A DNA stretch of 64,000 bases from Planctomycetota bacterium (GCA_965223545.1 OZ245006.1:3296001-3360000); one strand, 5' to 3'; counted from the first letter of the stretch, positions 1,727 to 15,024 are shown. The notes: generated by a model not told the origin, from the sequence alone. A program made the numbers and translations.

Positions 1727-2460
1727 GGTCGGTCTCTCTCTTGCCCGGCGGCGCGCTCGCGTTGGCGCAGCGCATGGATGTCGTGCTGTCGCGCGCGGTA
1801 GAACAGGTAGCGGTGAAACAAGTTGCCGGCGCGCTGGAGCGCCAAGGTCGCGGCGGCGGCGCCATCGACCGGCAGTCCGCCGACGACGCGGTCGCGCAGC
1901 TGCATCTCCAGCCGGCTCGCCTCGCGCAAATGGGTGGCGATCGGCGCCAAGGCGTCGACCGGAACGTCGTGCTCGGCGAAGAGCGCGGCGATGGTCTGCA
2001 GCAGGCGGAGGTCGAGACCGTCGAACGGCGAAGGACCGGCGTCAGGAGGCGGCAGCAGCACCCCGGCTTCGATCAGTCGGGCCAGGAGCTCGGGAGCGAC
2101 CCCGGCAGCGCGCGCCAGGTCCGGCGCGTCGAACGGACCCTCGTCGACTCCCTCGACGTCGCCGGCGACGGCCCGCTGTAGGAGCACGGCGACCTCCGGC
2201 TCGACGCCGCGCTCCACCCATTCGAGCACCCGGCGCACCTGGGGGAGCGGGAGCGCGGGCCCGCCGTCCTGCGGCTCACGCATCTCCTGCAGGAGGGCCA
2301 GGCGCCGGAGGTGGGCCTCGCCGTACAACGCGGCGTTGGGAGCGGTCTTGGTCGGCGGCGGCAGCAGGCCTTCGCGCAGGTAGAAGTGGATCTTGGTGCG
2401 GGGCACGCCACTCCTGGCGACCAGCTCACGCATACGTAGGGCGTCGACCGCTTGGTCCAT
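1723..2460 (-). CDS. MerR-family transcriptional regulator
   Basis: N-terminal LRMRELVARSGVPRTKIHFYLREGLLPPP HTH; second HTH-like segment LARAAGVAPELLARLIEAGVL. Confidence 0.85.
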   Translation of the reverse strand: MDQAVDALRMRELVARSGVPRTKIHFYLREGLLPPPTKTAPNAALYGEAHLRRLALLQEMREPQDGGPALPLPQVRRVLEWVERGVEPEVAVLLQRAVAGDVEGVDEGPFDAPDLARAAGVAPELLARLIEAGVLLPPPDAGPSPFDGLDLRLLQTIAALFAEHDVPVDALAPIATHLREASRLEMQLRDRVVGGLPVDGAAAATLALQRAGNLFHRYLFYRARQHDIHALRQRERAAGQERDRP

Positions 2461-2591
2461 GAAGTGCAGACTTACGATCTACACTCTGTATTATCACGGA
2501 GCCGGGCAATGTTCCCCGCGGCTGGAGCGGCCCGCCGTCCCCGGCATCTGTTTTCCGTTCAAAGCACCTTTCGTGGGATCATGGACCGACC

Positions 2592-3176
2592 GTGATCAGC
2601 CACGACTCCGCTCCGCGCGGCGCGCCGACCCCGCCGGCCGACCTCGACAACCTGATCGTCGCGGCCATCCGGCGCCTGATGCGCGCGGTCGACCTGCACT
2701 CGCGGCGCCTCTACGAGGCCTGCGGGCTGACCGGGCCGCAGCTTGCAACCCTGCAGGAAGTCGCGCGTTCCGGCCCTCTACCGGCGAGCACCCTGGCGCG
2801 TGCGGTGCATCTGAGCGGCCCCACGATGACCGGCATCCTGACCCGCCTGGAGCGCCGCGGACACATCCTCCGGGCACGCGGCGATACGGATCGACGCACG
2901 GTTCAGGTGTCCATCACGAAGCTCGGGGCGGCCACGCTGGAACGGGCGCCTTCGCTGCTGCAGGATCGGTTTCGACGCAAGCTGTCGCAGCTGGAACACT
3001 GGGAGCAGCTCATGATGTTGGCCAACCTCCAGCGCATCGCGATGATGATGGATGCGGAGCAGCTGGACGCGGCGCCTCACCTGGTGGCCGATGCGGCGGC
3101 GCTGGACCGCGACGGCAGCGACCCGAGCGGGCCGTTGGCGGGCGGCGCGAAGCCGGGCGGCGCGCCTCCTGGCTGA
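2592..3176 (+). CDS. MarR-family regulator of the CosR/EctR (compatible-solute regulator) type
   Basis: IRRLMRAVDLHSRRL...GLTGPQL, winged-helix DRR motif, and C-terminal APSLLQDRF...WEQ...LQRIAMMMDAEQLDAAP, which resemble CosR/EctR as I recall them. Confidence 0.85.
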   Translation: MISHDSAPRGAPTPPADLDNLIVAAIRRLMRAVDLHSRRLYEACGLTGPQLATLQEVARSGPLPASTLARAVHLSGPTMTGILTRLERRGHILRARGDTDRRTVQVSITKLGAATLERAPSLLQDRFRRKLSQLEHWEQLMMLANLQRIAMMMDAEQLDAAPHLVADAAALDRDGSDPSGPLAGGAKPGGAPPG

Positions 3177-3242
3177 CGCGCGGGACGAGGAAAGGAGGCC
3201 GCGGTCAGAAAATCGGTCAGACTCCATCAAGTCTCGCGATAG

Positions 3243-3256
3243 CTTTGCGTGCAAAG
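3243..3256. promoter_or_regulatory. Candidate MarR (CosR/EctR-like) operator
   Basis: Perfect palindrome CTTTGC-GT-GCAAAG, 8 nt upstream of the ATG at 3265. Confidence 0.6.
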
Positions 3257-3264
3257 AATCTCGC

Positions 3265-3597
3265 ATGCCTACCAAGAAGATCGAGGCCTACCTGAAGCCT
3301 TTTCGCTTGGCCGAAGTGCGGACGGCACTGGCAGAGGCTGGCTTCGACGTGATCCGCGTGCACGACGCCGAGGAGCTGCGGCCGACGGAGACCTACACCG
3401 AGACGGTCCAGGGGCAGCGCTACGAGATCGACGCGTCGCCGCGGGTGCTGGTCGTGCTCTTGGTGGAGGATCGCGAGCTGGAGCGCGCCGTCCGACTGAT
3501 CCAGTCCGTCGCGCGCACGGACCACCGCGGCGACGGCCGGATCTTGATCTCCGCGGTCGAGCAGCTGGTGCCGGTGGACCCGGACGAAGCGTCGTGA
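3265..3597 (+). CDS. Divergent P-II family protein
   Basis: MPTKKIEAYLKPFRLAEVRTAL...ARTDHRGDGRILIS matches the GlnB/GlnK layout; several ligand-binding residues are altered. Confidence 0.85.
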   Translation: MPTKKIEAYLKPFRLAEVRTALAEAGFDVIRVHDAEELRPTETYTETVQGQRYEIDASPRVLVVLLVEDRELERAVRLIQSVARTDHRGDGRILISAVEQLVPVDPDEAS

Positions 3598-4067
3598 TGC
3601 GGGCTCATCCGATCGCCGCGGGGCTGCTGCTGGCAGTCGGCCTCGCCGCGCAGGAGCCACGCGAGTTGCCCACGCCGGAATGGGTGCCCCCCCCACCGCT
3701 CGAGGCCGCATCCGCCGACGGTAGCTTCGGCCTCGCATGGCAGCCGATCGAGGCGCCCGCCGGCGGCTCGATCTCCTTCGACCTCGAAGAAACAACGCCG
3801 CAGGGCGAGCGGAACGTGCTGGACGCGGGACCGTTCGCCGGCGCCGCGCTCAGCGGCCGTGAAGACGGCACCTACACCTACCGGGTCCGCGCCCGCGCGG
3901 CCGACGGCGCCACCGGGGACTGGAGCGCGGCGTTTGCGGTTCACGTGCGCCACCACTCCCTGGCGCTCGCCATCGCCCTGTTTGCCATCGGCGCAGTGGT
4001 CTTCGTCGCCACCGCGGTGACCGTGATCGGCGGTGCCCGGCGCGCGTCGGCCGAGGCCAGTCGCTGA
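3597..4067 (+). CDS. Exported fibronectin type III-like protein with C-terminal TM anchor
   Basis: TGATG coupling to the P-II gene; signal peptide MRAHPIAAGLLLAVGLAA; FN3-like DGTYTYRVRA...GDWS; C-terminal hydrophobic helix followed by RR. Confidence 0.75.
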   Translation: MRAHPIAAGLLLAVGLAAQEPRELPTPEWVPPPPLEAASADGSFGLAWQPIEAPAGGSISFDLEETTPQGERNVLDAGPFAGAALSGREDGTYTYRVRARAADGATGDWSAAFAVHVRHHSLALAIALFAIGAVVFVATAVTVIGGARRASAEASR

Positions 4068-4079
4068 CCTGGATCCGCC

Positions 4080-5501
4080 ATGCACCCCACCATCCTCGAC
4101 CCCGGCGTCGCCGGCGCACTGCTCGCCATCTTCAGCGTCGTTTGGGTGTTTCTCGGCTGGTGGTGGGGCCGCAAGGCGTCCGGCCTCGACGACTTCATGC
4201 TGGCCGGTCGCCGGGTGGGCTTGGCGTTGGGCACGGCCACGGCGATGGCCACCTGGGTCACCAGCAACACGACCCTGGTGGCACCACAGCTGGCCTACCA
4301 ACTCGGCATCTGGGGGATGCTCGGCTACTCGCTCGGCTCGATCGGCCTGCTGCTGTTTGCGCCGATGGCGGCGCGCATCCGCGCGCTGATGCCGCGCGGG
4401 TTCACCAGCGGCGACTTCATGCGGCTGCGCTACGGCACGCTGACCTGGCGGGTGTTCCTGGTCGTGTCGCTGGTCTACAGCGCCGGTTGGCTCATCAGCC
4501 TCGGTACCGCTGGCGGGGTGCTGCTCGAGGCCCTCAGCGGGATTCCGTACGAAGTCGGGGCGACCGTCATCCTGACGATCTGCGTGCTTTACACGCTGCT
4601 CGGCGGCCTGCGCGCGGTGATCGGCACGGACTACATCCAGACCGTCGTCATCATCACCGGCCTGGTGGTGATCGGTGCGCTGACGCTGTCGGCCGTCGAC
4701 CTCGAGACCACGCACCGACACCTGGCCGAGGCGCGGCCGCGGCTGCTCGACATGCTGATGCCGGCAGCGGTGATGTTCCTGTTCAACAACCTCCTCTTCG
4801 GCGTCGGCGAGATCTTCCACTCCAACGTCTGGTGGAGCCGCGCGTTCGCCTTCGATCGAGGCGTCGGCTTCCGCGCATATCTGCTGGCAGGCCTGATGTG
4901 GATCCCGATCCCGATCGCCGCCGGCTTCGTCGCGCTTTCGGCCCCGGTTCTCGGCCTGTCGGTACCGCGGGCCGACATGGTCGGCCCCATGGTCGCCGCC
5001 GAAGTCCTCGGTTTCGGCGGTGCCGTGCTGCTGTTCGTCATCGTGTTCTCGGCGATCGCATCCAGCCTGGACTCGCTGCTGGCGGCGACCAGCGATCTGA
5101 TCGTCGAGGATGTCTACCGCAGACATTTGCGCCCGCAGGCAAGCCGCGAGCAGCTGCGACGCGCATCTTCGATCGTCATCCTGCTGCTCGGTGCGGTGAC
5201 TTGGGTCGTCTGCATGCTCGACATCACGACCCTGGCAAAGCTGCTGCACTTCACCGGTGCGCTGGTGGCGAGCACGATCTGGCCGATTGCGGCGGGCCTG
5301 TTCTGGCGGCGCGCCAACCCGACCGCAGCGTGGCTGGCGATGGCCCTGGGTTCGGTCGGCGGGCTGATCGCATACAACGCGATCGGCTTCTACGTCGCCG
5401 CCCTCGTCGGCGCGGCGATCTCGATGGTGATCGTCCTCGCCGGCGCCTGGCTGCGGCCGGCGGAGTTCGATTGGCGCACGCTGCAGGAGGCCGACGCATG
5501 A
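4080..5501 (+). CDS. Sodium:solute symporter (SSS) family transporter, DUR3/PutP-like
   Basis: DDFMLAGRRVG, LYTLLGGLRAVIGTDYIQ and SAIASSLDSLL motifs; about 13 TM helices. Confidence 0.92.
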   Translation: MHPTILDPGVAGALLAIFSVVWVFLGWWWGRKASGLDDFMLAGRRVGLALGTATAMATWVTSNTTLVAPQLAYQLGIWGMLGYSLGSIGLLLFAPMAARIRALMPRGFTSGDFMRLRYGTLTWRVFLVVSLVYSAGWLISLGTAGGVLLEALSGIPYEVGATVILTICVLYTLLGGLRAVIGTDYIQTVVIITGLVVIGALTLSAVDLETTHRHLAEARPRLLDMLMPAAVMFLFNNLLFGVGEIFHSNVWWSRAFAFDRGVGFRAYLLAGLMWIPIPIAAGFVALSAPVLGLSVPRADMVGPMVAAEVLGFGGAVLLFVIVFSAIASSLDSLLAATSDLIVEDVYRRHLRPQASREQLRRASSIVILLLGAVTWVVCMLDITTLAKLLHFTGALVASTIWPIAAGLFWRRANPTAAWLAMALGSVGGLIAYNAIGFYVAALVGAAISMVIVLAGAWLRPAEFDWRTLQEADA

Positions 5502-5620
5502 CACTCCCTCTGGTCGTTCTCGAAGTGCTCGTCTACGCAGCACTCGTGACCAGCGCCGTGACGCCGGTCGCCCTCGTCTGGCTGCTGGTTCGCGACTGGA
5601 GATCGGGCAAGCTGTGGTGA
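5498..5620 (+). CDS. 40-aa single-TM small protein, probable SSS transporter accessory subunit
   Basis: ATGA overlap with the SSS stop; MTLPLVVLEVLVYAALVTSAVTPVALVWLLVRDWRSGKLW; its stop overlaps the start of the next gene. Confidence 0.7.
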   Translation: MTLPLVVLEVLVYAALVTSAVTPVALVWLLVRDWRSGKLW

Positions 5621-6696
5621 AAGCGCTGCAGCTCCTGCCCCGACTGCGCGAACCGGTGCAGGGGCGCACCCGCCACGTCGGCATCGAGCACCCACTCCGC
5701 CTGCTCGAGGCCGTACCGGAGGACCCACAGACCCTGTTGCGGCTCGGCAGCCGACACGTGGTGTCGTCGCTGCAGTTCGATCGCGAGGTCGTTCTGCAGC
5801 TGTGCCGGCTGGCCGCCGCCATCGAGAGCCAGCCCGCCCTCCGCCACTTGCCGCTCACCGGCAAGATCCTGATCACTGCGTTCTACGAGCCGAGCACCAG
5901 GACGCGCCTGTCCTTCGAGAGCGCGTGGCACCGGCTCGGCGGCGACATCTTGTCGATCACCGATCCCGAGACCACCGGGATCGCCAAGGGGGAGAGCCTG
6001 GCCGACGTCGCCGAGATGTTCAGCAACTACGGCGACGCGGTAGTCCTGCGCGACCGCAACGAAGACTCGGTGTTCGAGATGATCGACACGCTGCGCGTGC
6101 CGATCATCAACGCCGGCAACGGGATCGACGAGCATCCCACGCAAGCCCTCGCCGACCTCTACACCGTGTTCAAGTGGCGGCCCGAGCTGACGGGGCCCAA
6201 CGTCACCGAGCGCGTGCGTTTCGGCGTGATCGGCAACCCGCGCAAGATGCGCACCGTGCGCAGCCTGCTGCGCCTCCTGTGCCTCTTCTCCTCCGTGATC
6301 GAAGAGGTCGTCATCGTCAATCCCGAGACCGATCTGTTCGACGATGGCGAGCGCGAGCGACTCGAGGACTCCGGGCTGCGCATCGGCACCGAACGCCGCC
6401 TGGGAGCGGCCCTGCGCGAGCTCGACGTGATCTACATCAACTCGATCGCCTGGATCGGCGATACCTTCGAGCGGCTGACCGGCGATCTGCGGCTGACGGC
6501 GCGCTCCTCGTTCAAGCCCGGCGCGATCGTGCTCCACCCCCTCGCCCGCGGCGAGGAGCTGGCCGTCAGCCTGGATGACACCCCCCACAACTGGTACTTC
6601 AGCCAAGCGCGCGGCGCGACCTTCTTGCGAATGGCATTGCTGACCAGCATGGTCGAGCGCGTGCACCGGGTCGCCGACGTCCGCCCGCCTCGTTGA
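5614..6696 (+). CDS. ATCase/OTCase-superfamily carbamoyltransferase, PyrB-like but non-canonical
   Basis: Carbamoyl-phosphate motifs FYEPSTRTRLSFE, KGESL, HPTQAL and HPLAR are present; the PyrB R-x-Q aspartate-binding motif is replaced by YINSIAW. Confidence 0.88.
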   Translation: MVKALQLLPRLREPVQGRTRHVGIEHPLRLLEAVPEDPQTLLRLGSRHVVSSLQFDREVVLQLCRLAAAIESQPALRHLPLTGKILITAFYEPSTRTRLSFESAWHRLGGDILSITDPETTGIAKGESLADVAEMFSNYGDAVVLRDRNEDSVFEMIDTLRVPIINAGNGIDEHPTQALADLYTVFKWRPELTGPNVTERVRFGVIGNPRKMRTVRSLLRLLCLFSSVIEEVVIVNPETDLFDDGERERLEDSGLRIGTERRLGAALRELDVIYINSIAWIGDTFERLTGDLRLTARSSFKPGAIVLHPLARGEELAVSLDDTPHNWYFSQARGATFLRMALLTSMVERVHRVADVRPPR

Positions 6697-6730
6697 CGCA
6701 CTTGACCCCAACACGACAAGGACACGACCC

Positions 6731-8788
6731 ATGTGCGGAATCGCCGGTGTGCTCCACCGCGACCCCGAGCGCCGCGTAGACCGCGGCACCTTGGCGGCAA
6801 TGGCCGCGATCCAGCAGCACCGCGGACCGGACGGCTGCGGCTGGCACGCCATCGACGACCGCGGTGTGGGGTTCGCACACGCCCGATTGGCGATCATCGA
6901 TCTCAACGACAGCGGGCGCCAGCCGCTCCTCGACGGCGGTGGCCGGTGGATGTTGACGCACAACGGTGAGTTCTACGACTACGCACGCATCCGGGCCGAC
7001 CTGACGACGCGCGGCGCGCGGTTCACCACGAAGAGCGATTCGGAGATCGTGCCCCATCTCGTCGCGCACTACGGACTGGACGGCGCGCTGCCTCATCTGC
7101 GCGGTGAGTTCGCGTTCGCGTTCTACGACCGCGAGACCGACGAGCTGGCGCTGGTGCGCGACCGGTTCGGGATCAAGCCGCTCTACTGGACCATGACCGC
7201 GGACACCGTGGTGTTCGGCTCGGAGATCAAGGTCCTGTTCGCCCATCCCGAAGTGCCGCGCGCGTTTGCCGACGAGGGGCTGTTCCACCAGCTCATGCAG
7301 GCGATCACGCCGGGCAGCACGCCGTATCGCGATGTGCACCAAGTGGCGCCGGGCCACGTCGTCCGCATCCGCCGCCGGGGCGGCGGCTTCGAGGTCCGCG
7401 AGCACGCTTACTGGGACATGCCGTTCCCGGTGTGGAACGAGCGGCGGCCGGACGCCGCCGAGGACGAGGTCGTCGAACAGGTCCGCGCCCGGCTGCTGGA
7501 GGCCGTGCAGCTACGACTGGTGGCGGACGTCCCGGTCGGCTGCTACCTCTCCGGCGGCATCGACTCCTGCTCGATGTTGGGGCTCGCCGCCGCCTGCCGC
7601 CAGGATCCGGTCAAGGCCTTCACTATCGGCTTCGACAACCGAGACTACGACGAAACCGAGATCGCCAAGTCGATGGCGCACTCGGTGGGCGCCGATCAGG
7701 ACGTGCTGCCAGTAGGGGCGGCCGAGTTGTACGACCACTTCGTCGAGACCCACTGGCACACCGAGCGCACGATCTACAACACGCTGGGCGTCGCCAAGCT
7801 GCTGATGAGCCGCCATGTGCGCAACGCCGGCTACAAAGTGGTGATTACCGGCGAGGGCTCGGACGAGCTGTTTGCCGGCTACCCGAGCTTTCGCGCCGAT
7901 TTGTTCCGCCATGGTCTCGAGCACCTGCCGGCCGCCGAGCGCGTCGGCATGGAGCAAGCGCTGCAGGAATCCAACGCGGTCTTCAAAGGCGCGATGCTGC
8001 CGTCGCAGGCCTACGACGACCCCGCGCTCACCGCGCTGTGCGGCTTCACCCCGACCTGTCTGCAGCCCTGGCTCGACGCGTCGCGCCGGGTACTGCCGCT
8101 GATCGCCGGCGACCGCCGCACCGCGCTGGCCGACTACCGCCCGGGCGAAGCGATCGCCAACGCGCTCGACGCGAGCGCCATTCGCGGGCGCCACCCGCTC
8201 GACATTGCCCAGTACGTCTGGGTCAAGACGATGCTCGAAGGGCAGATCCTGACCTGGGGCGGCGATCGCGTCGACATGGCGAACTCGATGGAGGCCCGGC
8301 CGGCGTTCCTCGACCATCATCTCGCCGAGTACGCAGCCGGCATCCCGCCGCACCTCCGCATCCGAGCGCGCACTGAGAAGTACGTGCTGCGCGAAGCGAT
8401 GAAAGGCGTCTTGCCGCGCGAGCTGTACGAGCGCGAGAAGTTCGCGTTCATGGCACCACCGGCGCACACCGACCCGCGCAAACAGGCGGCCCTGCGGGCA
8501 CTGACCGACCGCTACTTGTCGGCGGCGGCGATCGAGCCCGCGGGTCTGCTGGACGCGGACGCGGTGCGCGCGCTGCTCCGGCTGCAGGACAGCGGCGACT
8601 TGCCACGGGCGGAGATGGTCCAGCTCGACGCGGTCGTCAACCACTTGCTCGGTGTGCAAGTGCTGCACGAACAGCTCTTGGCGCACGACATCCCGGCGAC
8701 CGCCGCGCGCTTGGCCGCACCGCTGCTGGCCGACACACCGCCACAACCGTCGCCGGCGGATGGCGGCTTCACCAACCCCTCGCCGTGA
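6731..8788 (+). CDS. Asparagine synthase-like (AsnB-family) glutamine amidotransferase
   Basis: Ntn nucleophile [23 protein letters not shown]-loop [36 protein letters not shown]. Confidence 0.92.
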
Positions 8789-9548
8789 AGCCACCGTCGA
8801 CCGCGAGCGATTGGCCGGTGACGTAGCTCGCGTCCGCACTCAGCAGGAACGCGATCACGCGCGCCACTTCTTCCGGCTGGCCGACCCTGCCCAGCGGGGT
8901 GTGCTCGCGGATTCGCTCGGCGGTCCCCGGCCGCTGCAGGACCGGCTGCACCAGCGGTGTGTCGATGTACCAGGGCGCGACCGCGTTGACGCGGATGCCA
9001 TCGGCGCCCCATTCGCTGGCGAGGCCGCGCGCCATCGCATCGATCGCCGCCTTGGTCGCGGCGTACGGAACACCCGAGCCGACCGAGACCGTGCCGGCAA
9101 CCGAGCCGACCAGGACCACGCTGGCCGCATCCGAGGCCCGCAGCCATGGATGCGCGCGGCGCGTCAGCTCGAAGGCGGAGTCGACGTTGGTGGCGAACAG
9201 GTGCGCAACCTCTTCGCGCGCATAGTCGACCGCCGGGCGGCGGATATTGGTGCCGACGTTGGCCACGATGAGATCGAGCCCGCCCCACCTCTCGCCGACC
9301 GAGGCGAGGATGGCAGTCAGACCGACTTCGGTCGAGGCGTCGGCCGCGACGCCGGTGACCGCCACGAGCCCGCGGCGCCGCCAGTCCGCGACCGCAGTCT
9401 CGACGCCATCGGCACTCCGAGCGACGATCGCGACCTCGGCACCCGCCCCCAGCAACTGCTCGGCGGTGGCACGGCCGATGCCCTGGGTCGCCCCGGTGAT
9501 CAAGGCTCTGCGGCCGGCGAGAGAGGGAAACGCGACGGTGTCGGGCAT
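8769..9548 (-). CDS. SDR-family oxidoreductase (tropinone reductase-like)
   Basis: [18 protein letters not shown], catalytic [18 protein letters not shown]. Confidence 0.9.
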
Positions 9549-9657
9549 GCCATCGTTGTAACCGTCCTGTCCCGCAGCCGACCCCGTTCCGGCGTCGGCT
9601 CGGGATCCGCCCTATGCTGCTCTTCCCTGCCTCACCCCGAAACCACACCAGCTTCTC

Positions 9658-11115
9658 ATGCACCGACCCCTTGCTTCCGCGATGTGGCTACCCGTTTGCG
9701 CATCCACGATCGCCCTGACCGCGTTGGCTGCCTCCGCACAAGTCAGCCGCAACGTTCAGCTCCTCGGCCAATACACTCCGGCCTCCAGCTCCTTCAGCGA
9801 CGTCTGGGGCTACACCGATCCAGCGACCGGCAAAGAGTACTGCCTCATGGGCAGCCTTGCCGGCACGCACATCGTCGACTGTAGCGACCCGACGAGCCCG
9901 ACCGAGGTCGGGCTGATCCCCACCGACGCACCGTTCACGTTCTGGAACGCATGGCGCGACATCAAGACCGTCGGCACCTACGCATACATCGTCTCCGAGG
10001 CACACGGGGGGATGCAGATCGTCGACTTGACCAACCCCGCCGCCGCGACCAAGGTCAAGACCTGGGGATCGTGGAGCGGCGCGCACAACATCGCTGCCGA
10101 CCCCGAGGCGGGCTTGGTCTACGTCTGCGGTACCGGGTCGGGCACCTACGTCGTGGACGTCGCTACCGATCCGGTCAACCCCGCGCAGCTCTTCGTGCTG
10201 GGGTCGCCGTACATCCACGACCTCTCGGTCGCCGATGGCGTCGGCTACTTCATGGACCAGAACGGCAACAACCTCAACGTCTACGACACGTCGTCACCCG
10301 GCAGCCTGCCGCTGCTGGGCTCCGGGCGGATGCCCGGCGCCAGCGTGGCGCACGCCAGCTGGCCGAGCCGCGACGGCACGGTTTGCATCGCCAGCAACGA
10401 AGCCAACGGTGGGCCGATCTCGATCTGGGACATCAGCAACAAGCGCATGCCGATGCTGCTGAAGACGTACACCGCCGGCCCGAGCAGCGCGATCCCCCAC
10501 AACCCGTTCATCAGAGACCGCGTCGCCCACATCTCGTACTACACCGAGGGCTATCGCTCGCTCGACCTCAGCGATCCGACCAACCCGGTCGAAGTCGGCT
10601 ACTACGACACCTCGACCTTCCCGGCCGGCGGCTACAACGGCGCCTGGGGCTGCTACCCGTTCCAGCCGTCGGGGGTGGTCTACATCACTGACATCGAGAA
10701 CGGCCTGTACGTGCTGAAGCCCGCATCGAGCGCGGAGCGCTACGGACCGACGACGACCGGCAGCGCCGGCGCGACCCCACAGATCTACGCGTTTGGCTCC
10801 GCCTATGCCGGCAACGCGAGCTTCAAGCTCGAGGTGGACGGCGCGCCGACCAGCCGCCCCGGGGTGATGGTGCTCGCCGCTGGTCGCGGTAGCACGACCG
10901 TCGGCAGTCTCACCGTCAACGTCGCAATCGGCGCCTCGACGGCCCTGGTGCCGATCGCCAGCGACCCCAACGGCCAGGTTTCGGTGCCCCTGCCGGTGCC
11001 CGCCGGCATCGCGGTGGGCGGCACGCTGAACGTGCAGATGCTTTTCGCGGACAGCACCCAGGCGCTCGATCTGTCGGGCACCCAGGGCCTCGAGTTCGAC
11101 GTCTTCGCCAAGTAG
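9658..11115 (+). CDS. Secreted LVIVD-repeat / choice-of-anchor B-type beta-propeller protein with shared C-terminal domain
   Basis: Signal peptide; SDVWGY, WRDIK, AHNI, YIHD, PHNP, ISYYTEG, GAWGCYPF, DIENGL. The start could instead be the later ATG at 9682. Confidence 0.8.
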   Translation: MHRPLASAMWLPVCASTIALTALAASAQVSRNVQLLGQYTPASSSFSDVWGYTDPATGKEYCLMGSLAGTHIVDCSDPTSPTEVGLIPTDAPFTFWNAWRDIKTVGTYAYIVSEAHGGMQIVDLTNPAAATKVKTWGSWSGAHNIAADPEAGLVYVCGTGSGTYVVDVATDPVNPAQLFVLGSPYIHDLSVADGVGYFMDQNGNNLNVYDTSSPGSLPLLGSGRMPGASVAHASWPSRDGTVCIASNEANGGPISIWDISNKRMPMLLKTYTAGPSSAIPHNPFIRDRVAHISYYTEGYRSLDLSDPTNPVEVGYYDTSTFPAGGYNGAWGCYPFQPSGVVYITDIENGLYVLKPASSAERYGPTTTGSAGATPQIYAFGSAYAGNASFKLEVDGAPTSRPGVMVLAAGRGSTTVGSLTVNVAIGASTALVPIASDPNGQVSVPLPVPAGIAVGGTLNVQMLFADSTQALDLSGTQGLEFDVFAK

Positions 11116-11187: not shown

Positions 11188-12603
11188 TCAGCCGCTGAAC
11201 ACGTCGAAGCGCATGCCACGGGTCGCGGCAAGGCCGGCGGCGGCGCCCGGGTCCGTGACGACGAACTGGGCGTAGACCACACCCGAGGTGGCGTCGCCCG
11301 GCGGAACCGCAATCGGCACGCGCACGGTGCCCGCCGCGTCGGTCTGCGCCGTCACCGCGATCACCGGCTGGCTGAGGTCGACCGCCAGCTGCACACCGGC
11401 GACCGCGGTGTTGCCGCTGGCCGCGCCCAGCAGGAGCACGACGCTGGCGTTGGCAGGCGCGTTGTCGAGCTCGACCGCAAAGTTGGCATTGCCGGCGAAG
11501 GCCGCGCCAAAGCTGTAGATCTCCGGCGCGCCGGCTGCGCCGTCGGTGGCGATGCCGAACAGATCGGGCGTCGCTTTGCTGTCGAGGATCATCAGGCCGT
11601 TGTTGCGGTCGCTCATGTAGACCACGCCGGATGGCTGGAACGGGTAGCACCCCCAGGAGCCGGAGAAACCACTGGTCGAAGACGTCGTGTCGTAGTGCGC
11701 GACCTCGACCGGCCGGCGCGGATCGCTGATGTCGACCGCACGGTAGCCCTCCGAGTAATAGGCGATGTGGACCACCCGATCGCGGATGAAGGCGTTGTGT
11801 GCCGAGGCCGAGTTGCTGCCGGTCTTGTAGACGGCAACCCTCGTCGGCAAGCGCTTGTTGCTGATGTCCACGATCGCGACGCCGGGGTTGAACGACTCGG
11901 CAGCGACCGAGGCCACGGTGTTGTCCCGGCTCGGCCAAATGTGGTGCGCCGAGGAGAACGACACCGAGCCCAGCACCGTCGTCGCCGGTGCCTGGGTCAC
12001 ATCACGCAGCTCGTAGCGCGAGTTGTTGATCTGTGCGAGATGCGCGATGCCGTCCCTCACGTGCAGGTCGTGCACGTAGGAGCCGCCCATGTTGCCCAAG
12101 TGCACGGGGTTGACCGGATCCGCGAGGCTGATGATCGGTACCCCGACGTCGGTGCCACACGGGTAGAGCATGCCCGCCCCGGTATCGAGGGCGACATTGT
12201 GGGCTCTGCGGAACACGTTGGTGCCCCAGGTCTTCACCAGCACCGGCTTGTCCGGATCCTGCAGGTCGATGATCTGCACGCCGCCGCCACCCTCGGTCAC
12301 CACGTAGGCGTAGTGCTGATAGGTGCGCATGTCGCGCCACCCTGAGTTGGGCCCCGAGAAGAAGCCGCGCTGGATCGGGTTGGTCGGGTCCGAGCAATCC
12401 ACGATGTAGGTGCCCGTGCCGGTGCCGAGGATGGCGTACTCCTTGCCCGCGGGGCTGACGTAGCCCCAGATGTCGTTGTAGGACTGGCCGGAGGGGTCGA
12501 AGCGGCCGACCAGGGAGGAGTTGCGAGGCGGAGCTTGCGCAGACAGGAGCGAGACGAGGGCCGCGGCGGTCACCGCCGCGACACAGCTGTGCCGAAACAT
12601 CAT
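11188..12603 (-). CDS. Secreted LVIVD / choice-of-anchor B-type protein, convergent paralogue of 9658-11115
   Basis: Signal peptide; NDIWGY, WRDMR, AHNV, YVHD, AHNAF, IAYYSEG, GSWGCYPFQPSG. Confidence 0.8.
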   Translation of the reverse strand: MMFRHSCVAAVTAAALVSLLSAQAPPRNSSLVGRFDPSGQSYNDIWGYVSPAGKEYAILGTGTGTYIVDCSDPTNPIQRGFFSGPNSGWRDMRTYQHYAYVVTEGGGGVQIIDLQDPDKPVLVKTWGTNVFRRAHNVALDTGAGMLYPCGTDVGVPIISLADPVNPVHLGNMGGSYVHDLHVRDGIAHLAQINNSRYELRDVTQAPATTVLGSVSFSSAHHIWPSRDNTVASVAAESFNPGVAIVDISNKRLPTRVAVYKTGSNSASAHNAFIRDRVVHIAYYSEGYRAVDISDPRRPVEVAHYDTTSSTSGFSGSWGCYPFQPSGVVYMSDRNNGLMILDSKATPDLFGIATDGAAGAPEIYSFGAAFAGNANFAVELDNAPANASVVLLLGAASGNTAVAGVQLAVDLSQPVIAVTAQTDAAGTVRVPIAVPPGDATSGVVYAQFVVTDPGAAAGLAATRGMRFDVFSG

Positions 12604-12780: not shown

Positions 12781-15024
12781 TTACGCTCCACGCAAAGCGA
12801 ACCAGCGCATGCCGCGCGCTGGCACGGTCACCTCGAGCCGCAGCCGTCCCGCATCGAGCGGCACGACGCGATCGTCGCGGCCATCCGTGACGATGCGCAC
12901 CCGCTCTCGCAAACCGGTGTAGTAGACGTCCACCCACAGCTCCTTGGTGCGCGCGCGATCCAACGGGTTGTAGACAACCAACATCCCCTTGTCCTCGAGT
13001 CGAGGGTTCACGTGCAGCATCCAATCGAGATCGCGGCCGTCGGCGCGCCGCCCGTGCACCAGATCCGATTCGAGGATGTCGCGGTGCCGCTTGAACCAAG
13101 CCACCCATGCGGCCACGAGCTGCCGGGTCCGCTCGGTATCGAACAGCCGCGGGCCGCGATAACACGCCTGCACGCCGAGCCCGAAGTTGCTGGCCAACAT
13201 CTGCTCGTAGTGGTCGCGGTGTGCATCGAGCGGCTCGATCGTGGCCGCCGCCCCTCCGCCGTGGTACTCGCTGAGCGGCACGAACATCCAGCCCATGCTC
13301 GGCGTCTTGGTCCACGAGCCGTCATAGATGTTCTGCCGCGTGTGGATCACCTGCTGCGCGCGGGGCAACGACCAGTTGGTCTCGCGATAGCCCATCCCGC
13401 ACTTGCTGGTGCCGACCAGGTAGTAGTAGTCCGGCGCGTTGATGTAGATGCCGCGCCCACGGCACCAGCGATAGAAGTCGGCGGCGATTCCCCATTGCAC
13501 CCAGCGCGAGTCCTGCTCGCCTTTCTGCAGCGGCGGCCGCGGCGTGACGTCGACATCGCCGGGGTAGGGGCCGTCGTGCTCGAGCAGCGTGAAGCCGGTC
13601 TGCTCGAAGAACGCGTACAGCTTGCGGAAGTACTCCTGGCCCCATGCGCTGGTCAACGCCGGGCAGTTGCCGTGCGTCGGGCGCGTTCCCGCCGGCGTGC
13701 GGATGTCGTTGCCGCCGCCGATCCGCCGCGACGACAGCAGCGAGTAGCCACCGAGCTCGACCCCCGACGCCCGGGCGTGCGCCGCGAGCTCGCTCCACTG
13801 CGCGATGGTCTCGGCGCGATCGTCCTCGATGTCGAAGCCACTGCCGAACGACAGGATCACCATTTCGAACCCGACCGCGGCGGCATCGTCGATCGCCCGG
13901 CGCACCGAGGCCACATCGGAAACCCGCAGATGGTGCATCAGGGGATTCTCGGTCACCCAAGGCGCGACCGTCCGGTACAGCCTGCGGACCGCGAGCCCAC
14001 GGCGTTCGCGCTCGGTGCTATCGAACGCCAGCTCGAACGTCCGGTAGCTGGTGGCGACGCCTCCGGGCGCCACCCTCTGTGCCGGCCCGTAGGTCGGCTC
14101 GACCACGAGAAGGCACGGTTGCTCGCGCCGGTAGTTGACCTGCGTGCGGTACTGCGGGTCCGCGCGCCATTGCACGACATGGCGATTGGCGTTCTCGGCG
14201 ACGAACCCACCGAACGCGTAGTCGGTCTCGACGTGCAAGCAGTCCGGGCGCGGCAGCGGCACGCCGCTTCGGCTCTCGACCCACCCTCCGGACTCGACCA
14301 CCGCGAGCTCCTCGGTCGTCCACCGGTCGACCTGCACCTCGGCATCGCCGTCGTTGTGCACCGTCAGCCACTTGCACATCGCCGGAATCCCGTCGTAGAG
14401 CTCGTAGTGGACGGCGACGCGCACCCCGCGCAACGCCCGGGCGGCAGCGGTCACCGCCTCGCGACCGAGACCGCTCGGCAGCCGCCCCGCACGCTCCAGC
14501 TCGTCCAGGACCTCGGCGTCCTCGAGATCCGGCATCTCATAGTCGAAGCGCACCGCCACCCCGGCGGGCGGCCACTGTCCGCCGGGCGCGTGGTGGCGCG
14601 CACGCGCCCACGCCAGCCGCTCGGTCGGTTCGGAAACCCGGTGGCCGACCAACCGCATCGCCACCGGCGACGCCGTCATCTGCGCCACCCACTCGGGGGC
14701 CAGGTAGGCGTGGTTCGGCTGCCCTTGCAGACCGCCGACTTCGAGCGACACCCCATCGACGACGATCCGCGCCTCCGGCCGCACCGCGCGCAGCATCGAC
14801 TGGCCGGAGGTCAGGTTGTCGAACGCGATGCACGCGCCGTTCGGCGCCAAGCGCCACACCCGCCGGACGAGGCCGTTGCCCAGCGCGAGCTCCCGACCGG
14901 TCGGGTCGAGCTCGGCCCGCGCGGCAAAGCTCGAGGGGTCGATCAGCCAATCCGGGTCGGGTTGAGCGACGCACGGCATGGTGGCCGCCCACAGCGCGAT
15001 CACCGCGAAACTGCAGTCAGGCAT
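12781..15024 (-). CDS. Secreted alpha-galactosidase-like (GH36/clan-D-like) glycoside hydrolase
   Basis: Signal peptide, N-terminal beta-sandwich (LGNGLVRR, YELYDGIP), TIM-barrel-like core (GFEMVILSFGSG, LEHDGPYPG). The family call is tentative. Confidence 0.6.
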   Translation of the reverse strand: MPDCSFAVIALWAATMPCVAQPDPDWLIDPSSFAARAELDPTGRELALGNGLVRRVWRLAPNGACIAFDNLTSGQSMLRAVRPEARIVVDGVSLEVGGLQGQPNHAYLAPEWVAQMTASPVAMRLVGHRVSEPTERLAWARARHHAPGGQWPPAGVAVRFDYEMPDLEDAEVLDELERAGRLPSGLGREAVTAAARALRGVRVAVHYELYDGIPAMCKWLTVHNDGDAEVQVDRWTTEELAVVESGGWVESRSGVPLPRPDCLHVETDYAFGGFVAENANRHVVQWRADPQYRTQVNYRREQPCLLVVEPTYGPAQRVAPGGVATSYRTFELAFDSTERERRGLAVRRLYRTVAPWVTENPLMHHLRVSDVASVRRAIDDAAAVGFEMVILSFGSGFDIEDDRAETIAQWSELAAHARASGVELGGYSLLSSRRIGGGNDIRTPAGTRPTHGNCPALTSAWGQEYFRKLYAFFEQTGFTLLEHDGPYPGDVDVTPRPPLQKGEQDSRWVQWGIAADFYRWCRGRGIYINAPDYYYLVGTSKCGMGYRETNWSLPRAQQVIHTRQNIYDGSWTKTPSMGWMFVPLSEYHGGGAAATIEPLDAHRDHYEQMLASNFGLGVQACYRGPRLFDTERTRQLVAAWVAWFKRHRDILESDLVHGRRADGRDLDWMLHVNPRLEDKGMLVVYNPLDRARTKELWVDVYYTGLRERVRIVTDGRDDRVVPLDAGRLRLEVTVPARGMRWFALRGA

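Follow-up and report, generated by a model that had tools for sequence, protein, structure and literature searches.

A conserved gene cassette with an aspartate carbamoyltransferase-like and an AsnB-like enzyme in a planctomycete: a candidate operon for an N-carbamoyl amino-acid amide compatible solute

Gene layout of the locus

The window, that is, the whole stretch of DNA analysed here, comprises 64,000 nucleotides of the genome of a Planctomycetota bacterium (GCA_965223545.1) and starts at position 3296001 of contig C1. Seven genes, all on the plus strand, occupy positions 2592 to 8788. The first (2592..3176) encodes a MarR-family regulator of 194 amino acids (aa) (PF01047, 46.8 bits). It is followed, after a gap of 88 nt that contains a short palindrome assigned to neither strand (3243..3256; 6-bp arms, 2-nt spacer), by the gene for a P-II-like signal protein of 110 aa (3265..3597). 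This gene overlaps by 1 nt with that of FN3-TM, a 156-aa protein with an exported FN3-like domain and a C-terminal membrane anchor (3597..4067), and 12 nt further on lies the gene for a transporter of the sodium:solute symporter family (SSS; 473 aa, 4080..5501). The SSS gene overlaps by 4 nt with an open reading frame (ORF) for a single-helix membrane peptide of 40 aa (5498..5620), which in turn overlaps by 7 nt with the gene for an aspartate carbamoyltransferase (ATCase)-like carbamoyltransferase (CT) of the "pseudo-ATCase" family (360 aa, 5614..6696; PF02729 and PF00185). After 34 nt, an AsnB-like glutamine-dependent amidotransferase of 685 aa closes the series (6731..8788; PF00733 and GATase_7).

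The coordinates thus bear out the first-pass annotation, which had described six co-oriented genes behind a MarR gene, and the six are indeed tightly packed. The same annotation had placed no pyrimidine or car genes nearby, and we likewise found no pyr or car gene within positions 1 to 15 kb of the window. The true pyrB of the genome is located 2.9 Mb from the CT gene (C1:390139-391119), and carB is found at C1:4942686.

Two enzymes related to PyrB and AsnB

Alignment of CT with E. coli PyrB and with the genome's own PyrB showed that the carbamoyl-phosphate motifs are retained, together with K84, R105, H134, Q137 and R167. The carbamoyl-phosphate site is intact, the columns of the STRT motif, R105, H134 and Q137 being invariant both within the family and in the alignment with PyrB. 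In the same PyrB alignment, the residues for the aspartate side chain are replaced, R229 by S277 and Q231 by A279; further changes turn K232 into W280 and HPLP into HPLA. This pattern of kept and replaced residues is invariant or near-invariant across 15 family members; the family as such shows 57-76% identity across phyla. The best PDB matches of CT by sequence profile were ATCases (199 bits). Against the aspartate carbamoyltransferase model TIGR00670, however, CT scored 190.4 bits, below the curated cut-off of 236.95, whereas the true PyrB of the same genome scored 287.8 bits and keeps the aspartate-binding motif. With this score, the loss of R229 and Q231 and a true pyrB elsewhere in the genome, we rejected the identification of CT as PyrB. 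The loss of these two residues, rather than any positive determinant, is what would point to glutamine as the substrate.

The AsnB-like protein conserves the Cys2 nucleophile and the PP-loop SGGxDS (here SGGIDS) and, compared with E. coli AsnB, contains about 100 inserted residues. It scored 414.8 bits against TIGR01536, the glutamine-hydrolysing asparagine synthase superfamily (cut-off 267.1), and only 251.2 bits, in three stretches, against the AsnB equivalog NF006949 (cut-off 499). A second AsnB-family gene is present elsewhere in the genome. An assignment as AsnO, the amidotransferase for N-acetylglutaminylglutamine amide (NAGGN), was also rejected: the protein reached 281 bits against TIGR03104, whose cut-off is 570.1, and its partner Ngg is absent from the genome, the best match to TIGR03103 scoring 27.4 bits against a cut-off of 569.

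Partner genes, synteny and distribution

The SSS protein scored 106.9 bits against PF00474 (gathering cut-off, 22.8), and none of the PanF, PutP and ActP equivalogs was reached (83 bits for PanF and 76 bits for PutP, both far under their cut-offs). By these comparisons it appears to belong to a subfamily without earlier description. An ORF of the 40-aa peptide type was found in 66 of the 70 loci whose SSS and CT genes lie on one strand, with a conserved C-terminal motif, [RK]D[WFY]....LW. Complex prediction for the SSS protein and the peptide gave a score of 0.83; the best of three controls scored 0.00. Of 157 solved complexes, 116 attain this mark of 0.83, as do 2 of 215 mismatched pairs. Three runs shared at least 95% of contacts, with a partner pLDDT of at least 84. 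These predictions support binding of the peptide to the SSS protein, of which it would be a small subunit. FN3-TM had no Pfam or NCBIfam match, and its AlphaFold model (pLDDT 87) comprises a signal helix, six strands and a C-terminal helix (residues 122-155). Its best PDB matches in Foldseek were FN3 domains, with E values of about 1e-4 (8e-5 and weaker) and TM-scores to the target of 0.6-0.7.

We then compared the 80 best related loci. The AsnB-like gene is adjacent to the CT gene in 75 of them (49-67% identity) and the SSS gene is present in 71 (51-70% identity), an arrangement that is far beyond chance. FN3-TM homologues occur in 37/80 loci, and the same number has a MarR homologue, in either orientation, within 8 kb of the CT gene. 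No NCBIfam equivalog scored above its cut-off for the MarR protein, and the named entries among the 120 MarR relatives listed read "MarR family" only, none carrying the name EctR or CosR. A relative, G072, has no MarR gene beside the cassette. In three Ectothiorhodospira loci, a sucrose synthase gene flanks the MarR gene on its other side. Of the first-pass label "CosR/EctR-type", the matches support the MarR-family part, and the protein is a likely local regulator of the cassette. The P-II-like protein is above the cut-off of PF00543 (34.8 bits versus 25) and below that of the GlnB/K equivalog (55.7 bits versus 202). It was found by tblastn in 8 of the 80 loci, in six of which (Leptospirales and Acidobacteriota) it lies 5' of the transporter genes, and the G072 protein is 65% identical. 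The palindrome, seen by eye 9 nt upstream of the P-II-like start, was not reported by a repeat search at a minimum length of 10 and was not seen upstream of the P-II-like gene in G072; it is a possible operator or hairpin.

Two hydrolases often accompany the cassette: a member of the M20 N-carbamoyl-amino-acid amidohydrolase family in 41/80 loci and an isochorismatase-type amidase in 29/80, with no further family widely shared among the neighbours of these loci. The M20 protein scored 378 bits against the hydantoinase/carbamoylase amidases (TIGR01879) and 392 bits, below the cut-off of 520, against the N-carbamyl-L-glutamate amidohydrolase ErtE. For the isochorismatase protein, the best named matches were biuret amidohydrolase and RutB, both ureide/amide hydrolases. 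Judged by these matches, the pair would suit the degradation of an N-carbamoyl amino-acid amide. Neither is encoded at the locus in the window; the nearest M20 homologue in the genome is 32% identical (C1:2477913-2479235). The minimal conserved gene set lacks both. Carbamate kinase was found neither among the conserved neighbours of the related loci nor above cut-off in the genome (best, 21.6 bits versus 358).

The cluster occurs in hundreds of species. Among the matches listed, those CT relatives that have a name are called "aspartate carbamoyltransferase", with a few exceptions whose names are generic or "hypothetical". The named carriers of the CT family are overwhelmingly marine, saline or soda-lake taxa, among them Ectothiorhodospira magna, E. 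haloalkaliphila, E. mobilis, Thioalkalivibrio, Thiohalophilus, Idiomarina, Pseudidiomarina, Kangiella and Kordiimonas. The family is present in 49/55 genomes of the family of E. mobilis and in only 2/121 genomes of the window's own order. The neighbourhood search that the first-pass annotation had proposed for Ectothiorhodospira and other halotolerant genomes was thus positive: the CT and AsnB-like pair, mostly with SSS, was recovered in all three named Ectothiorhodospira species and in many saline or marine genomes. N-carbamoyl-glutamine amide (CGA) is known from E. marismortui, the nearest relative of E. mobilis (average nucleotide identity, 93%), according to the available text of two papers (PMC8877833, PMC1224877); the original description is cited in the literature as Galinski and Oren 1991. 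Our literature search found no pathway assigned to CGA, in agreement with the first-pass annotation, which knew of no genetically defined one. For Thioalkalivibrio, glycine betaine and sucrose are the only solutes reported in the available text of the sources (PMC3368412, PMC9062515). In salt-shift arrays of Rhodopirellula baltica, the family member RB13301 appears in neither of the two supplementary files. The only entries there with nearby locus numbers are two small ORFs, RB13294 and RB13300, with log2 ratios of 1.25 and 1.42, barely above the threshold of 1.2 used in that paper.

Proposed function and comparison with known systems

Our preferred reading, held with modest confidence, is that the P-II-like, FN3-TM, SSS, 40-aa peptide, CT and AsnB-like genes form an operon for making and recapturing a compatible solute that is an uncharged N-carbamoyl amino-acid amide, CGA or a close analogue. 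The substrates, product, transport direction and regulation that we infer would be as follows. With carbamoyl phosphate from the genome's CPSase as donor, CT would carbamoylate L-glutamine at its alpha-amino group, in a pocket that retains the ATCase arginine for the alpha-carboxylate and has turned neutral where ATCase accommodates the second carboxylate. The AsnB-like enzyme would adenylate the free alpha-carboxylate and amidate it with ammonia from glutamine hydrolysis, by the chemistry of AsnO in NAGGN synthesis. Leaked or external solute could be taken up again by the SSS protein with its 40-aa subunit and FN3 anchor. The P-II-like protein may couple transport or synthesis to the cell's state of nitrogen and energy supply, because the product would hold four nitrogens, and the MarR protein would provide transcriptional control. 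In many other carriers, the isochorismatase-type amidase and the M20 amidohydrolase may degrade the solute. The sucrose synthase gene beside MarR in Ectothiorhodospira counts in favour of this reading. Against it stand the spread of the cluster over hundreds of species, among them Thioalkalivibrio with its other reported solutes, the absence of RB13301 from the R. baltica salt-shift files and the catabolic activity of the one pseudo-ATCase tested. As for the first-pass annotation's interpretation, the recurrence of the pair in Ectothiorhodospira, the loss of the aspartate side-chain residues from CT and the frequent presence of ureide/amide hydrolases speak for it. Its label "uncharacterised" holds for the function, which had not been assigned, and not for the CT family and its synteny, which were published in 2013 under the name "pseudo-ATCase" (PMC4016543).

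A product or role other than a CGA-like osmolyte, with the same N-carbamoylation and carboxyl amidation, is rather unlikely: the cassette would make a carbamoyl amide derived from a different neutral amino acid, or else a metabolite for nitrogen storage or buffering. The substrate pocket of CT is defined solely by losses, a P-II-like nitrogen-signal protein lies within the cassette, the M20 partner is of the generic N-carbamoyl-L-amino-acid hydrolase type and the literature, as far as available, holds no CGA reports from most carriers, all of which would suit such a product. However, we know of no other natural N-carbamoyl amino-acid amide, and the saline or marine bias of the carriers, together with the origin of CGA in a genus group almost all of whose members have the cluster, argues for the osmolyte.

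A catabolic or salvage route is improbable. Here, SSS would import a ureido compound and CT would release carbamoyl phosphate by phosphorolysis, as the Rubrobacter pseudo-ATCase does on allantoate. The only pseudo-ATCase characterised in the available text of PMC4016543, Rxyl_2847, is indeed degradative, no partner except AsnB is more constant than the symporter, and hydrolases stand alongside the cluster in up to 41/80 loci. Yet no carbamate kinase scores above cut-off in the genome or is found among the conserved neighbours, and an ATP-yielding catabolic use would therefore have no partner; the ATP-consuming amidotransferase has no place in a degradation, and the minimal gene set dispenses with both hydrolases. 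Moreover, the motifs of the Rubrobacter group differ according to Table 1 of that paper, whereas Kangiella, assigned there to the marine group (PMC4016543, available text), has HPLA and AIA like the window's family, AIA being seen in a Kangiella sp. That the genes are no more than additional pyrB and asnB copies that serve to make pyrimidines and asparagine, in line with the public names of the CT relatives and the score of the AsnB-like protein above the broad TIGR01536 cut-off, can be practically dismissed in view of the lost R229 and Q231, the sub-cut-off CT score, the true pyrB and second AsnB-family gene elsewhere, the lack of adjacent pyr genes and the fixed synteny with a symporter across phyla.

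Under the preferred osmolyte reading, the cassette is a directly testable two-gene candidate for CGA. More tentatively, CGA might be a widespread bacterial osmolyte made by an ATCase-derived glutamine N-carbamoyltransferase and an AsnB-type alpha-carboxyl amidase, served by a dedicated Na+ symporter of three parts (SSS, 40-aa subunit and FN3 anchor), with P-II-like gating in some lineages. If the osmolyte reading is right, a compound hitherto regarded as peculiar to a single species would turn out to be common among bacteria of the sea and of soda lakes, and the second "aspartate carbamoyltransferase" and "asparagine synthase" of hundreds of genomes would be misannotated. The carbamoyltransferases would then gain a new specificity and the symporters a new subfamily, one that has a small subunit.

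The closest described system is the marine pseudo-ATCase block of Barba, Dutoit, Legrain and Labedan (PMC4016543), reported from the planctomycete R. baltica, Nitrosococcus oceani, Synechococcus WH8102 and Kangiella koreensis; in the available text, its function is unassigned and osmolytes are not mentioned. Its motifs are STRT, HPTQ and HPLA, with [AS]I[AS] replacing RxQ, and the window's CT has STRT, HPTQ, HPLA and SIA. The block's neighbours are shared as well: it is flanked on one side by a Na+ symporter and on the other by what is called an "asparaginase" but is in fact a gene of the AsnB type (PMC4016543, available text). Unlike the window's cluster, the block has a HyuC-like carbamoylase adjacent "in nearly all cases", and the available description includes no 40-aa peptide, FN3-TM, P-II-like gene, MarR gene or isochorismatase partner (PMC4016543). 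The rows of Table 1 in that text and its subgroup numbers disagree, the marine motif standing in row 1 and the text numbering the marine group as Subgroup 3. Rxyl_2847 of Rubrobacter xylanophilus, a ureidoglycine carbamoyltransferase and, in the same text, the only pseudo-ATCase with tested activity, resembles CT in not using aspartate; in contrast, it belongs to another subgroup, acts catabolically on allantoate and lies among carbamate kinase, allantoinase and purine degradation genes (PMC4016543). PyrB shares with CT the fold and the carbamoyl-phosphate site, whereas CT scores below the family cut-off, lacks the residues for the aspartate beta-carboxylate, has a conserved N-terminal extension of about 45 residues and has no PyrI or PyrC neighbours. 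In the NAGGN system, asnO-ngg (NCBIfam TIGR03104 and TIGR03103), an uncharged osmolyte arises when an enzyme of the AsnB family converts the alpha-carboxylate of an N-blocked glutamine into an amide. The same kind of amidation is proposed for this locus; however, the cap in NAGGN is an acetyl-dipeptide made by Ngg, whereas here an ATCase-like enzyme would attach a carbamoyl group as the cap. Ectoine systems combine ectABC and EctR/CosR with uptake and degradation genes. Their logic of synthesis genes, a MarR-type regulator, a dedicated recapture importer and optional degradation genes is similar to that proposed here, whereas their enzymes and transporter type are unrelated.

Locus layout and the two enzymes

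The window corresponds to G000:C1:3296001-3360000 in a genome of 8.1 Mb with roughly 70% GC, and the names that its nearest protein relatives bear in public records indicate Planctomycetota. Gene calls and family searches identified, all on the plus strand, the MarR gene (2592-3176), a P-II-like gene (3265-3597), a sodium:solute symporter (SSS; 4080-5501), an ATCase-like carbamoyltransferase (CT; 5614-6696) and an AsnB-like amidotransferase (6731-8788). Between the P-II-like gene and SSS lies FN3-TM (3597-4067, +), encoding a signal peptide, an FN3-like domain and a transmembrane anchor, and between SSS and CT lies the gene for a 40-aa membrane peptide (5498-5620, +). The junctions linking the P-II-like gene through to CT are overlaps of 1 to 7 nt or a spacing of 12 nt, and 34 nt separate CT from the AsnB-like gene, whose stop is overlapped by a convergent SDR gene. 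The first-pass annotation had described six co-oriented, mostly translationally coupled genes following a MarR gene, and the gene calls, the family searches and the FN3-TM model with its PDB matches bore out this description throughout, including the FN3 call.

Upstream, two genes that overlap by 4 nt are divergent from MarR: a MerR-family regulator gene (1723-2460, -) and a gene (575-1726, -) for a membrane protein that carries a TlpA/ResA-like thioredoxin domain at its C-terminus. Just downstream of the cluster are two convergent paralogues encoding LVIVD-repeat proteins with signal peptides (485 aa, 9658-11115, +; 471 aa, 11188-12603, -), which are not kept beside the cassette in G072, the second cassette-carrying genome of the window's order. 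They are followed by an ORF of 747 aa (12781-15024, -) that has a signal-like N-terminus and matches no Pfam family.

Judged from sequence, the CT and AsnB-like pair is not the housekeeping pyrB and asnB. With 190.4 bits, CT falls short of the TIGR00670 cut-off of 236.95; the true pyrB, elsewhere in the genome (C1:390139-391119), scored 287.8 bits, and carB is found at C1:4942686. Alignment with the PyrB proteins of E. coli and of the window's genome indicated that CT retains the carbamoyl-phosphate residues (STRT, R105, H134 and Q137) as well as K84 and R167. In the same alignment, with E. coli PyrB as reference, R229 is replaced by S277, Q231 by A279, K232 by W280 and HPLP by HPLA, ATCase residues with roles in aspartate binding according to the ATCase literature. 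Both kept and changed positions were invariant or near-invariant across 15 family members spanning several phyla (60-74% identity), which also share a conserved N-terminal extension of ~45 residues. The AsnB-like protein retains Cys2 and the SGGxDS loop, carries an insertion of ~100 residues and falls below the equivalog cut-offs of both AsnB and the NAGGN-amidotransferase; another AsnB-family gene is located at C1:653237-654907. The true pyrB (L001:778-2130, minus strand; near 390 kb of G000:C1) itself has internal insertions of ~20 and ~11 residues relative to E. coli PyrB, and its frame stays open for ~112 codons beyond the ATCase domain.

Conserved neighbours and distribution

Among the species-representative genomes scanned, 569 stretches encode a CT relative; the best 80 of these loci were retained, and neighbours were counted by tblastn at a coverage of at least 40%. 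AsnB-like genes were present in 75 of the 80 loci and SSS in 71, followed by an M20 hydantoinase/carbamoylase-family amidase (41/80), FN3-TM and MarR (37/80 each), an isochorismatase-family hydrolase (29/80) and the P-II-like gene (8/80), the misses being partly technical since some loci are truncated by contig ends. In a dedicated scan, 66 of 70 loci had the small peptide ORF, whose C-terminal [RK]D[WFY]....LW is conserved, and no further widely shared gene families were detected among the neighbours of the best 80 loci. The M20 protein matched TIGR01879 at 378 bits; its score with the N-carbamyl-L-glutamate amidohydrolase ErtE model, 392 bits, is below the cut-off of 520 for ErtE, and the best named matches of the isochorismatase protein were biuret amidohydrolase and RutB. 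Taken with the neighbour content, these matches suggest that many carriers combine in one operon carbamoyl-adding and carboxyl-amidating enzymes, an amide/ureide hydrolase, an N-decarbamoylase and an importer. By homology, the window's genome holds only the synthesis and transport half of this cluster: the closest M20 homologue lies at a distance of 0.8 Mb and has 32% identity, and tblastn found no isochorismatase homologue in the genome.

Named carriers among the best 80 of 569 loci were Ectothiorhodospira magna, E. haloalkaliphila and E. mobilis, Thiorhodospira sibirica with CT alone, many Thioalkalivibrio, Thiohalophilus, Idiomarina, Pseudidiomarina, Aliidiomarina, Kangiella, Pleionea, Kordiimonas and Emcibacter, all genera of marine, saline or soda-lake habitats; carrier MAGs in this set were labelled Leptospiraceae, Acidobacteriota, Myxococcota and cyanobacterium. 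In T. sibirica (L011), CT lies between patatin-like lipase and lipid A acyltransferase genes, with neither an AsnB-like gene nor SSS within 8 kb. When homologues were sought with the E. mobilis protein as query, the names returned included E. lacustris, E. magna and Thiorhodospira but not E. marismortui.

The CT family was found in 49 of the 55 genomes of E. mobilis's family, the six without it being smaller ones (1.6-2.4 Mb), and in 2 of 121 genomes of the window's order. G072 carries P-II-like, FN3-TM, SSS, peptide, CT and AsnB-like genes at 49-76% identity, with flanks wholly different from those in the window and without MarR, indicating that the six-gene cassette is the unit. It was probably acquired horizontally; base composition gave no island signal (GC 0.66-0.73 across the region). 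At 1.6 kb downstream of its AsnB-like gene, G072 has an M20-family gene (L099:14667-15944) whose product shares 29% identity with the Ectothiorhodospira carbamoylase.

Transport module and control regions

SSS (alignment A4) and the 40-aa peptide (A5) scored 0.83 in complex prediction, against 0.00 for the best of 3 controls. In calibration, the 0.83 mark took in 116 of 157 solved complexes and 2 of 215 mismatched pairs, which is a rough guide here as custom alignments were used. Predicted contacts agreed by at least 95% between runs, with a partner pLDDT of at least 84. The modelling thus supports a predicted binding of the peptide to SSS. The FN3-TM model had a pLDDT of 87, with FN3 domains as best PDB matches (E about 1e-4), and a protein-atlas comparison returned only unnamed clusters at a score of at least 0.9.

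Members of the MarR subfamily abound in Planctomycetota (1756 proteins at E <= 1e-10), whereas few genomes of the window's order have the cassette; the tie between MarR and the cassette is therefore positional only here. In three Ectothiorhodospira loci (L009:2919-5627, L015 and L018), a divergent sucrose synthase gene lies beside the cluster's MarR, so that two osmolyte-type functions flank one regulator. Neither MarR nor the P-II-like gene is preceded by an inverted repeat of at least 10 bases, and no operator-like sequence upstream of the cassette was shared between the window and G072. Within window 2300-9700, no sigma-70-like promoter was found, and the single terminator-like site is within chance expectation. 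A search of the genome for ectoine synthase gave no match, as did its controls.

A candidate route to N-carbamoyl-glutamine amide

We propose that CT would carbamoylate a neutral amino acid at its alpha-amino group, glutamine being the best candidate because R167, which contacts the alpha-carboxylate, is kept and the distal-carboxylate pocket is neutralised. The AsnB-like enzyme would subsequently amidate the alpha-carboxylate, as AsnO does in NAGGN synthesis, to yield N-carbamoyl-glutamine amide (CGA). The symporter complex may recapture the solute, and the P-II-like and MarR proteins may tune the system to nitrogen status and, presumably, osmolarity.

CGA was reported from E. marismortui (PMC1224877), whose ANI with E. 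mobilis is 93% (PMC8877833). It is described as a minor solute of one organism only (PMC3857566), and Imhoff's genome survey names it as a possible solute, giving no genes in the available part of the text (PMC7824335). Literature searches with the compound names, and with carbamoyltransferase plus asparagine synthetase/synthase plus compatible solute/osmolyte, found no gene assignment.

The cluster is far more widely spread than the reports of CGA, which counts against CGA as the product. For Thioalkalivibrio, the available text of two papers reports betaine and sucrose only (PMC3368412, PMC9062515); the main text of a T. versutus D301 salt transcriptome study and a Thioalkalivibrio cold-adaptation paper do not mention the cluster. 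In Rhodopirellula baltica salt-shift arrays, the CT-family member RB13301 was missing from the regulated-gene files, and the only entries with nearby locus numbers were two small ORFs just above threshold. That the product is a different carbamoyl amino-acid amide, or that it serves as a nitrogen store, would be a rather unlikely but serious alternative. A catabolic route, of the type of the tested pseudo-ATCase from Rubrobacter, a ureidoglycine carbamoyltransferase (PMC4016543), is improbable, since no carbamate kinase was found among the conserved neighbours or in the genome and an ATP-using amidotransferase is constantly present. That the pair would be plain pyrB and asnB paralogues is scarcely credible. 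Glutathione-amide synthesis was also considered for the AsnB-like protein and rejected: carriers extend far beyond purple sulfur bacteria, and E. mobilis has the cluster, yet glutathione reductase was not found there according to the available text of PMC8877833.

CGA remains our preferred candidate product, and parts of the system were known before. Barba et al. (2013) named CT's family 'pseudo-ATCase', with motifs HPLA and AIA/AIS/SIA, and described its marine members as syntenic with genes for a Na+ symporter, an 'asparaginase' and a HyuC-like protein, proposing no function in the available text (PMC4016543). As the Kangiella sp. CT has HPLA and AIA, the Table 1 row 'pseudo-ATCase 1' would be the marine group, called 'Subgroup 3' in the text and group 3 in Figure 5. 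On the available text, family and synteny are therefore already published and function is not. New here are the cassette variant with a P-II-like gene, the conserved putative subunit of 40 aa and its predicted interface with SSS, the modelled FN3 fold of the anchor, the lack of a degradative half in the window's genome and the patchy occurrence of the cassette within its order. The Rubrobacter ureidoglycine carbamoyltransferase belongs to a different pseudo-ATCase subgroup from the marine group (PMC4016543).
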